From contig JAWLHJ010000007.1 in assembly GCA_041690395.1 (NCBI GenBank), positions 1 to 64,000 of the forward strand: a stretch of DNA of 64,000 nucleotides, read 5' to 3'. Shown here piece after piece: positions 390 to 1,289 of this stretch. Both the position numbers and the translations under genes were made by a program. Below the pieces are notes generated by a model. The model was given only the letters and a program-made list of their open reading frames with translations, was not told the DNA's origin and did no database searches. How positions within the stretch are numbered: position 1 is the stretch's first letter; the number at the start of each line of letters is the position of its first letter. This DNA is from Longimicrobiales bacterium. Its GTDB lineage: Bacteria; Gemmatimonadota; Gemmatimonadetes; Longimicrobiales; Gaopeijiaceae.

Positions 390-562
390 GGAGGGGTGGC
401 AGAGCGGTTCAATGCACCGGTCTTGAAAACCGGCGGGCGCAAGCCCTCGTGGGTTCGAGCCGAGCGGCCTGGTGGGTCATTCCGCGCAGCGGGCCAGCTG
501 GTGATCCGCGAGACGAGCGAGGACGCGCTGGTAAGCGCGCCCGGAGCTCCATCCCACCTCCG
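390..562 (+). pseudogene. tRNA-Ser(TGA)-derived copy interrupted in the T-loop by a 92-nt insert; 3' acceptor strand lacks 3 nt
   Basis: 390-458 matches the tRNA at 602-670 except in the variable arm. The insert spans 459-550, then ATCCCAC-CTCCG resumes (the intact gene has ATCCCAC-CCCCTCCG). Confidence 0.8.
459..550. repeat. 92-nt structured element, copy 1 (in tRNA T-loop)
   Basis: Aligns with 780-871: shared blocks gccgagcggcc, ccgcgcagcgggcc, cgcgagNcgagcgaggacg, gcgcgcccggaRctcc. Confidence 0.85.
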
Positions 563-601
563 GCAGCGTGGACGAAGTAGGATGGTAGATTAGCATCCCC
601 T

Positions 602-685
602 GGAGGGGTGGCAGAGCGGTTCAATGCACCGGTCTTGAAAACCGGCGGACTTCGGTCCTCGTGGGTTCGAATCCCACCCCCTCCG
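602..685 (+). tRNA. tRNA-Ser(TGA), intact, CCA not encoded
   Basis: Acceptor GGAGGGG/CCCCTCC, anticodon arm ccggt-ctTGAaa-accgg, long variable arm ggac-ttcg-gtcc, T arm gtggg-ttcgaat-cccac, discriminator G. Confidence 0.97.
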
Positions 686-779
686 CTTACAAGCCGAGTG
701 GCCATCGGAGACCTTCACGCGTCATCCGACCGATCCGTCGAACCCACGCGCGCTTTCGGAGCGCGCCTTATGGGTTCGA

Positions 780-871
780 GCCGAGCGGCCCGGCAGTTGG
801 TCCCGCGCAGCGGGCCGAGCGGGCAGCCCGCGAGCCGAGCGAGGACGTGCCGTAGGCGCGCCCGGAACTCC
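780..871. repeat. 92-nt structured element, copy 2, inside a tRNA-Ser T-arm remnant (771-883)
   Basis: Flanked by TGGGTTCGA (771-779) and ATCCCACCCCCG (872-883); same length and junctions as copy 1. Confidence 0.85.
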
Positions 872-1289
872 ATCCCACCCCCGCGTTGTCAGTATCCAGG
901 CGTTCGGCGACCCCGCCGGTTGTTCCGGTCCTCCGTAGAACCCGCTGCGATCTCTCAAGGAGAGCGCTAGAATGCGCTCGCTGCCTCCGAGAGGCGCGGG
1001 CGCCGGGACAGAGTCCTGCTGGCGTCAACCTGACAACGGGGCCCCTGCGGATAGTGACTTGGCGACTTGACCGCCCTAGTCGGCGGAAAAGTGACTCGCC
1101 AGGGAAGGCCGCGCGCGCGCCTGAGCGATTCGACGCCGCATACGGCGGAAAAGCCGACATGGCCCCGAACGCCGCGCACGAATGCAGGGTTCTCGCCGAG
1201 GTGGCGGGGCGAGGCCGGCGCGGTGATCCGACTCCATGCTGTGGACGGGGCGCCGGCAGGGTCGGTAACGTGGCATCGCCAACGGGGCC

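Follow-up and report, generated by a model that had tools for sequence, protein, structure and literature searches.

The window, that is, the whole stretch of 64,000 nucleotides analysed here, carries near its start an intact tRNA-Ser(UGA) gene with tRNA-derived sequence on both sides, and each of these neighbours is split by an insert of 92 nt. The features of the locus are the following.

390..458, + strand: 5' part, up to A58, of a tRNA-Ser(UGA) copy; with the insert removed, the copy is called as tRNA-Ser(tga)
459..550, + strand: insert copy 1, 92 nt; 75.2 bits with covariance model R1, of which it is a training sequence
459-514: arm 1 of copy 1, with a GCGG/CCGC stem, tandem GA and a CCGC-GCA-GCGG tip (helices from family covariation)
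515-549: arm 2 of copy 1, with a GAGC/GCTC stem, a GA/GSA loop and a terminal hairpin, followed by the last base of the insert, C
551..562, + strand: tRNA 3' end in degenerate form, following copy 1 and lacking 3 nt relative to the intact gene; repeat family D5
563..601, + strand: linker from the interrupted copy to the intact gene, with a TAGATT hexamer as in the linkers of other upstream-type copies
602..685 (686 in one call), + strand: intact tRNA-Ser(UGA), called by ARAGORN; 61.9 bits with Rfam RF00005
738..779, + strand: fold-back arm made of an inverted T-arm copy (738-746), a hairpin (748-766) and a T-arm 5' strand (771-779); inverted repeat I3
780..871, + strand: insert copy 2, 92 nt; 57.9 bits with model R1, of which it is also a training sequence
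872..882, + strand: duplicated tRNA 3' end, 11 nt identical to the intact gene

Both inserts lie between T-loop positions 58 and 59, with GGGTTCGA on the left and ATCCCACC on the right, i.e. at GGTTCGA^ATCC. A sequence-only reading of this DNA had described both neighbours of the gene as tRNA-derived copies carrying an insert. The junctions agree with this description, and the left host (390-458 plus 551-562) is a near-full tRNA copy, without 3 nt of the 3' acceptor strand. The right host, however, is only a T-arm fragment (771-779 plus 872-882, matching 9 nt on the left and 11 nt on the right), preceded by an inverted copy of its T-arm (738-746). The two inserts have 55 of 92 positions in common when compared without gaps, and BLAST aligns them at 79.6% over 93 columns. 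The nearest relatives of copy 2 are the tRNA-Ser(UGA) copies of genome G004. The DNA fold of 686-779 has a z of -3.56, and an equivalent fold-back arm is found behind tRNA-Ser(UGA) at loci L002, L009, L079, L085, L099, L102 and L142.

Copy 2 is not an assembly artefact, since it is covered by contigs of the DNA runs X2 (675-1000, with 4 differences and 2 gaps), X3 (680-906) and X1 (761-897); one of these runs may be the source sample, and read runs of small share were left out of this check. The RNA run X15 covers the tRNA parts only, not the inserts, and shows nothing on insert transcription.

The window thus displays two layouts at one tRNA gene, downstream type (copy 2) and upstream type (copy 1). 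The variable arm of the copy 1 host is that of 3/3 same-genus relatives and of 14/22 other rows, and that of the working gene (602-685) was found in 0/22 other rows. Therefore the interrupted tRNA-Ser(UGA) copy at 390..458 is likely to be the original gene, and the duplication would have brought in the 5' part of the working gene. The TAGATT hexamer in the linker is a possible -10 element; a sigma-70 scan detected no full promoter in the linker region.

No enzyme for the insert is encoded in the window, as had been noted from the sequence. Downstream of the tRNA locus lie, both on the - strand, a Beta-lactamase2-family gene (1293-2297; PF13354, E 2.5e-55) and a dodecin gene (2311-2517). A second non-coding repeat of about 170 bp, unrelated to the insert, occupies 1020-1190. 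The genome has five further copies of it with 75-83% identity (C7:123410, C6:160182, C1:726202, C2:661838 and C2:526230), the C6 copy adjoins a degenerate insert copy, and an Rfam scan of the repeat gave no match of note.

Family and fold of the insert

Covariance model R1, built from 29 copies, was searched against the window's own genome (G000, 98% complete) and found 13 places at E <= 0.1, including two partial matches. With four shorter copies that follow tRNA-Ser(GCU) and Ser(GGA), the total reaches at least 17 copies, beside tRNA-Ser, Pro, Cys, an Arg fragment and tmRNA. In the loci fetched, 167 copies were parsed, of which 160 were well parsed and 7 were dropped (slipped start or false parse). 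The small, gene-less, structured element read from the two inserts is therefore present in many further copies. Both inserts do measure 92 nt, as had been reported, but this identity is incidental: parsed copies span 77-99 nt, and shorter forms of about 57-78 nt also exist. The insert explains false or broken tRNA calls beside real tRNA genes.

Two places in this genome deserve mention. At C1:919395-922679, a cluster of 17 tRNAs contains six insert copies of two forms, behind Ser(GCU), Ser(GGA) and Pro(CGG). At C1:911200-915700 (L021, 1700-6200), a 4.4-kb segment lies between tRNA-Pro(GGG) and a 3' fragment of tRNA-Pro(GGG) bearing half an insert; the segment encodes a 1000-aa protein that, as judged by eye, may be a PHP-domain/ATPase fusion.

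The 160 well-parsed copies, in the loci fetched, belong nearly all to Gemmatimonadota. An exact pattern occurs at 115 loci of a species-level genome collection, and of the 80 for which titles were listed, 77 belong to Gemmatimonadota and 3 carry other labels; the window is assigned to this phylum on that ground. A strict pattern matches 17/126 genomes of the window's own family, and the control matches zero. The same pattern gave 4 matches among 124 genomes of two sister families, which look like chance because the hairpin is absent from them. These counts are low estimates, as looser patterns reveal copies missed by the strict one; the loose pattern is mostly noise and serves only to note one missed copy. 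A phylum-wide covariance search found the insert in at least 2/151 genomes, with 29 candidates per genome scored, and gives no frequency. The insert patterns had 0 matches among viral contigs, and BLAST of the insert gave one chance match among plasmids and none among phages. Rfam scans of the window and 14 loci returned only tRNA, tmRNA and RNase P, together with sub-threshold tRNA look-alikes.

Taken singly, the inserts have ordinary folding energies (z -0.97 and -0.12), so it is covariation that carries the argument for structure. Across the family, 88.2% of 601 cells are paired, a value equalled in 0/500 shuffles, with slid controls at 32-43%. Double changes affect 14/21 pairs of the structure, and none of the 500 shuffles reaches these values; these sequences also served to draw the structure, and relatedness among them inflates such a shuffle test. 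Two helices are conserved, GCGG/CCGC and GAGC/GCTC. In a set of 152 distinct inserts, the sequence of the arm-1 stem is GCGG/CCGC in 82, GGCG/CGCC in 38, GCGA/TCGC in 7 and GGGG/CCCC in 4, and the arm-2 stem GAGC/GCTC in 133, GACC/GGTC in 4 and GATC/GATC in 3, the parser having demanded at least 7/8 of the arm-1 and arm-2 pairs. This covariation supports two arms with tandem G·A pairs. Of the compensated changes first seen between the two window copies, the cgcgct/agcgcg versus cgtgcc/ggcgcg hairpin is there in the sequence. In contrast, the pairing of tgg/cca versus cgg/ccg is not supported at family level: the region aligns poorly, 46% of its 84 cells are paired, and 59/500 shuffles score as high.

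The arm-2 tip is a GNA triloop in 116 of the 152 inserts, GNRA in 9 and UNCG in 0, closed by C-G in 145, and G-T pairs account for 6/756 stem pairs (a control set of terminator loops, with 22 hairpins, was too small to use). GNA mini-hairpins are a stable DNA motif, and for a related hairpin the RNA form, GCGAAAGC, has far lower stability than the DNA form (PMC13037366, in excerpt). Since C-GNA-G triloops are frequent and G·T pairs rare, the fold was probably selected as single-stranded DNA and not as RNA. Of the two options given by the sequence-only reading, a fold as RNA or as ssDNA, the fold itself stands and the DNA option is favoured.

Target sites, layouts and descent

The TTCGA^AT T-loop had been named as the target. 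It accounts for most copies, but the range of targets is wider: the 160 copies comprise 134 T-loop-like sites (tRNA and tmRNA), 16 in the anticodon arm of tRNA-Pro(GGG), where the site reads CCTGA^ATGG, 4 in Y2 transposase genes, 3 placed in tandem on another copy, 1 in a tRNA-Ser D-loop and 2 others. The insert lies between A and A/C of YYGA^AT-like sites. The 4 copies in transposase genes, which are of the ISCR/IS91 type (Pfam PF04986), occupy two sites in two orientations: the sense site carries a frame-breaking 94-nt insert and the other site is antisense. A fifth insertion of this kind is found in L232, and the empty allele of its site in L078.

The absence of a target-site duplication holds across the family. 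The flanks overlap by no base in 92/160 copies and by one in 57/160, so that duplication at the target is nil or one shared A. These exact junctions also bear on the reading of the insert as a small spliced tRNA intron, whose interrupted copies would yield working tRNAs. Its position is fixed, and removing it gives a callable tRNA in about 10/167 cases, window copy 1 included. However, most hosts are fragments unable to form a tRNA, the copy 1 host is without 3 acceptor-stem bases, and one site is antisense in a protein gene. Intron signatures are seen in 0-8 of the 160 copies. Bacterial group I introns, which have U at -1 and end in G, sit in tRNA anticodon loops or in the tmRNA T-loop (Williams, bioRxiv 10.1101/2020.01.27.920355, in excerpt). 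The inserts have U at -1 in 3/160 and a terminal G in 2/160, with no Rfam intron match in the window and 14 loci, in keeping with the earlier rejection of a group I intron. Group II introns start with GUGYG and end with AY, and either terminus occurs in 0/160. The BHB motif of archaeal-type introns has a 4-bp central helix between two 3-nt bulges, and such a helix is found in 8/160. An intron is therefore very hard to credit. At L107 (about 1380-1480), sequence that we take, from its motif, to resemble a group II intron 3' end lies directly 5' of an insert copy.

Four layouts recur. In the downstream type, the intact gene is followed by a spacer, an inverted arm, GGTTCGA, the insert and a 3' end. 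In the upstream type, the 5' part of the tRNA from +1 is followed by the insert, a short folded-back 3' piece, a linker and the intact gene. Island-end fragments hold clean inserts, and full tRNAs in arrays form the fourth layout. The tRNA-linked arrays predicted from the window thus exist, as do tandem copies, and several arrays end with a truncated unit. In one dense tRNA array (L268, G375:C1:1035256-1038268), three otherwise complete tRNAs have clean T-loop inserts. At L037, L050, L111, L160 and L277, two copies stand head to tail, the second right after the last base of the first.

The 5' boundary of upstream-type duplicates often coincides with the start of the mature tRNA, and downstream-type duplicates extend as far as the discriminator base. 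Moreover, the insert is sense to the tRNA in 69/69 copies whose flank matched a tRNA gene in the same locus. Both features would suit movement through RNA, in which a transcript spanning tRNA and element is copied by a reverse transcriptase and the resulting cDNA recombines next to the gene. Against this stand duplicates that often run 20-45 nt beyond the tRNA end, the DNA-type loops, the lack of any reverse transcriptase match in G000 and the lack of group II termini, and we regard this route as improbable.

Descent was examined with 81 copies (host-target representatives) from 48 hosts, leaving out loci L121-L155 and the 'other' targets. The nearest neighbour has the same target in 44/81 cases (shuffles: mean 13, maximum 27) and the same host in 3/81, and target beats host 46 to 8 as clustering factor. 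Inserts cluster by target tRNA and not by host; therefore recent jumps within genomes are rare. Insert lineages thus appear to remain at their locus, whether through descent or through homing to one and the same tRNA, and the units are probably mostly inherited per locus. Indeed, orthologous copies behind tRNA-Ser(UGA) recur across genera. Presence is nevertheless patchy, and relatives have tRNA-Ser(UGA) loci without an insert. This patchiness, together with empty alleles and several unrelated target types, shows that insertion events have taken place.

Clustering by target, the orthologous copies across genera and the sense orientation (69 to 0) could also be expected of old, vertically inherited host modules with a role at the RNA level, such as precursor processing or trailer small RNAs, spread by rare rearrangement or gene conversion. 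The tRNA-linked repeats (TLRs) of E. coli, compared with the inserts below, lend this reading a precedent: PMC8144298, cited here from excerpts, treats TLRs as RNAs and not as mobile DNA, and reports that three of them are transcribed, processed and bind Hfq and CsrA, with transcription and small-RNA processing shown for rrA/B/F. Host modules fit poorly with precise insertions at unrelated sites, including the antisense and the frame-breaking 94-nt ones in transposase genes, and with DNA-type loops and few G-T pairs. The insert was also not found in most relatives searched, and a supplement row of PMC8144298 lists one strain without all 22 TLRs. We consider a host RNA module unlikely.

Candidate enzymes and proposed mechanism

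The window's own genome gave no match to Y2, Y1, reverse transcriptase or IS110 and has six tyrosine recombinases; the Y2 family search in this genome was run without a positive control, and a Y2 protein search matched 52/251 genomes. A regular-expression search for HUH motifs over this genome returned three frames, all implausible. Y1 genes are present in 2/126 genomes of the family, and RAYT or IS200 enzymes are therefore disfavoured. Y2 genes occur in 12/17 element-bearing genomes of the family versus 17/60 others, a comparison that leaves out 49 genomes of genera g6 and g32 (18/109 with them). Integron-like integrases (11/17 versus 18/60) and IS110 (11/17 versus 22/60) behave alike, so the Y2 enrichment is not specific, and general mobile load may explain it. 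All these counts include related genomes, which are not independent, and some copies in the 'negative' set were missed. Thus no single family stands out as the co-occurring HUH/Y1 transposase or integrase that the sequence-only reading had proposed to look for. Clustering of neighbouring ORFs recovered tRNA-derived frames, conserved neighbours and a Y2 group, with no dedicated partner gene.

The ISCR/IS91 Y2 transposase is nonetheless our leading, if tentative, candidate. Repeated landing in ISCR genes may merely reflect exposure of ssDNA there. The ISCR-like loci L202-L231 had no insert-like end, and no version with a gene between two insert ends was found (left-end search, 5 genomes, 30/70 matches). 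In L078, an ISCR-like element has at 940-1010 a tandem duplication of 48 bp, in what is presumably its oriIS end; a tmRNA-linked insert lies some 490 bp away.

The same ssDNA element might instead be recombined by an integron-like tyrosine recombinase, one strand of the folded substrate being exchanged with the T-arm and the product resolved by replication. tRNA genes are common targets of tyrosine integrases, and IntI acts on folded ssDNA. A SAM_4-type integrase is encoded in G000 at C2, about 762.9-764.3 kb (212.9 bits with an integron integrase model whose cut-off is 265), and this is the integrase enriched among element-bearing genomes. It is absent, however, from 6/17 of them, and around 15 copies of its gene a scan for strong GNA hairpins and tRNA genes revealed no insert-like array. 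The insert junction is without a shared overlap of 6-8 bp, nor does it fit the integron crossover, G^TT. Recombination of this kind is accordingly a minor prospect in our assessment. A 2.5-kb integrase-bearing element in seven near-identical copies in G015:C1 (L485-L490), with ends that resemble integron cassette sites by their CTAAC/GTTAG motif, proved to be unrelated.

HUH chemistry fits best, since folded ssDNA is the substrate of both IS91-family and REP systems and neither produces direct repeats (PMC9330008 and PMC8266576, in excerpt). On balance, we favour the view that the inserts are the Gemmatimonadota form of the TLR core: gene-less, likely folded as ssDNA, and likely cut and joined into tRNA stem-loops by an HUH-type enzyme in trans. 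A cut-and-join enzyme for ssDNA, supplied from elsewhere, would act at both insert junctions. Use of both ends would give a clean insertion, tolerated only in spare targets such as island-end fragments, tRNA arrays and ISCR genes. One-ended strand transfer between one insert junction and a tRNA T-loop would give a short duplication and leave one gene intact, the outcome being either the downstream type (copy 2) or the upstream type (copy 1, where the old gene is interrupted). This one-ended step was fitted to the two layouts, not observed. Direct repeats would then expand or shrink the arrays, and the units would mostly be inherited with their locus.

A broader claim is possible, though we hold it with less assurance: TLRs in general would be traces left by a class of gene-less ssDNA transposons that spans phyla. 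A borrowed rolling-circle (ISCR/IS91) transposase would cut the transposon core at its two junctions, and the core would home to tRNA loops, rebuild an intact gene by one-ended transfer (here replacing the 5' part of the working tRNA-Ser) and parasitise the transposase gene.

Comparison with known systems

IS91-family elements lack direct repeats and move via ssDNA circles (PMC9330008, in excerpt). The inserts resemble IS91/ISCR elements in the absence of direct repeats, in their tandem head-to-tail units and in landing in ISCR-like genes. They differ by having no transposase gene and no match to the ISCR-like oriIS ends found here. The IS91/ISCR cut site follows a GTTC/CTTG rule, and that of the insert differs. 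REP/REPIN-RAYT (TnpA-REP) systems and IS200/IS605 miniatures likewise have small folded ssDNA substrates, bulged stems and an enzyme in trans. As in these systems, a 4-nt stretch 5' of a hairpin pairs next to the 3' junction in a guide-like manner, by analogy only. Unlike REPs, however, the inserts are without a GTAG tag 5' of the hairpin, and their junctions are not CT/CA cuts (PMC8266576, in excerpt). In islands and prophages integrated at tRNA genes by tyrosine integrases, a duplicated tRNA piece also keeps the gene intact, whereas here the units are gene-less, 150-210 bp long, and the core also inserts without restoring its target. A MITE has terminal inverted repeats and a target site duplication (PMC3184786, in excerpt). 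This assignment was rejected: the insert ends pair internally, not together, and there is no target duplication.

The closest likeness is to the TLRs of E. coli, of which 22 at ten loci are described, defined by an 18-19-bp copy of the end of the upstream gene and with a function that is not known (PMC8144298). They include the 178-bp tyrT-tyrV repeats, or RtT RNA (Rfam RF00391; Egan and Landy 1978 and Rudd 1999, as cited in PMC8144298). The E. coli tyrT unit runs from an inverted 3' end through GGATGAGAA and GGTTCGA to a 68-nt insert, which consists of GNA hairpins and has A as its last base; ATCC and the tRNA end complete the unit. The frame of the Rfam RtT consensus is identical, with the inverted arm and the insert between GGTTCGA and ATCC. 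The units described here similarly stand behind a tRNA or tmRNA gene, end in a copy of the 3' end of that gene and form tandem arrays. They have the inverted arm GGATGAGAA before GGTTCGA and the insert between GGTTCGA and ATCC, and this insert starts with NYCGAG, ends mostly in A or C and forms GNA hairpins with tandem GA. Among T-loop copies (n=101), a GAASC arm lies upstream in 65 and the exact GATGAGAA in 17. In many copies the 3'-end duplicates are 15-16-nt matches up to the called gene end (genes being called without CCA); copy 2 has only 11 nt exact. Moreover, 45 distinct similar inserts stand beside a matching tRNA in the E. coli locus and in 121 metagenome and 33 viral loci, 41/45 of them with a C-GNA-G hairpin.

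There are also differences. The inserts have two long arms (77-99 nt), whereas the 68 nt of tyrT form four short hairpins. As in TLRs, copy 2 and most copies of the family are downstream of the gene, but copy 1 is upstream, a layout absent from the TLR descriptions in excerpts of PMC8144298. Here there are, in addition to the upstream type, insertions in the anticodon arm, in the D-loop and without duplication. RF00391 had no match in G000 at E <= 1 (gathering threshold 45 bits) and none in 14 loci, the control being found in E. coli. Conversely, model R1 had no match to the E. coli units (best E 0.72). A match to an already described repeat family had been raised as a possible objection; it applies to layout and junction, which are those of TLR/RtT, and not to the RF00391 sequence model. 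The junction and the inverted arm recur in the E. coli tyrT repeats; the inserts are therefore a distant variant of the known but unexplained TLR kind and not members of RF00391. A literature search, mostly outside subscription papers and not covering Rudd 1999 or Egan and Landy 1978, turned up no description of these inserts, nor any of TLRs as mobile DNA.

TLRs have been without known function or origin for decades. To a layout already known from E. coli, the present family adds a separation of the insert from its tRNA-derived flanks, which rests on clean insertions at several unrelated site types, on both layouts at one gene and on empty alleles. With an ssDNA fold based on covariation and with exact junctions, the TLR question becomes a cleavage and strand-transfer assay with named candidate enzymes.
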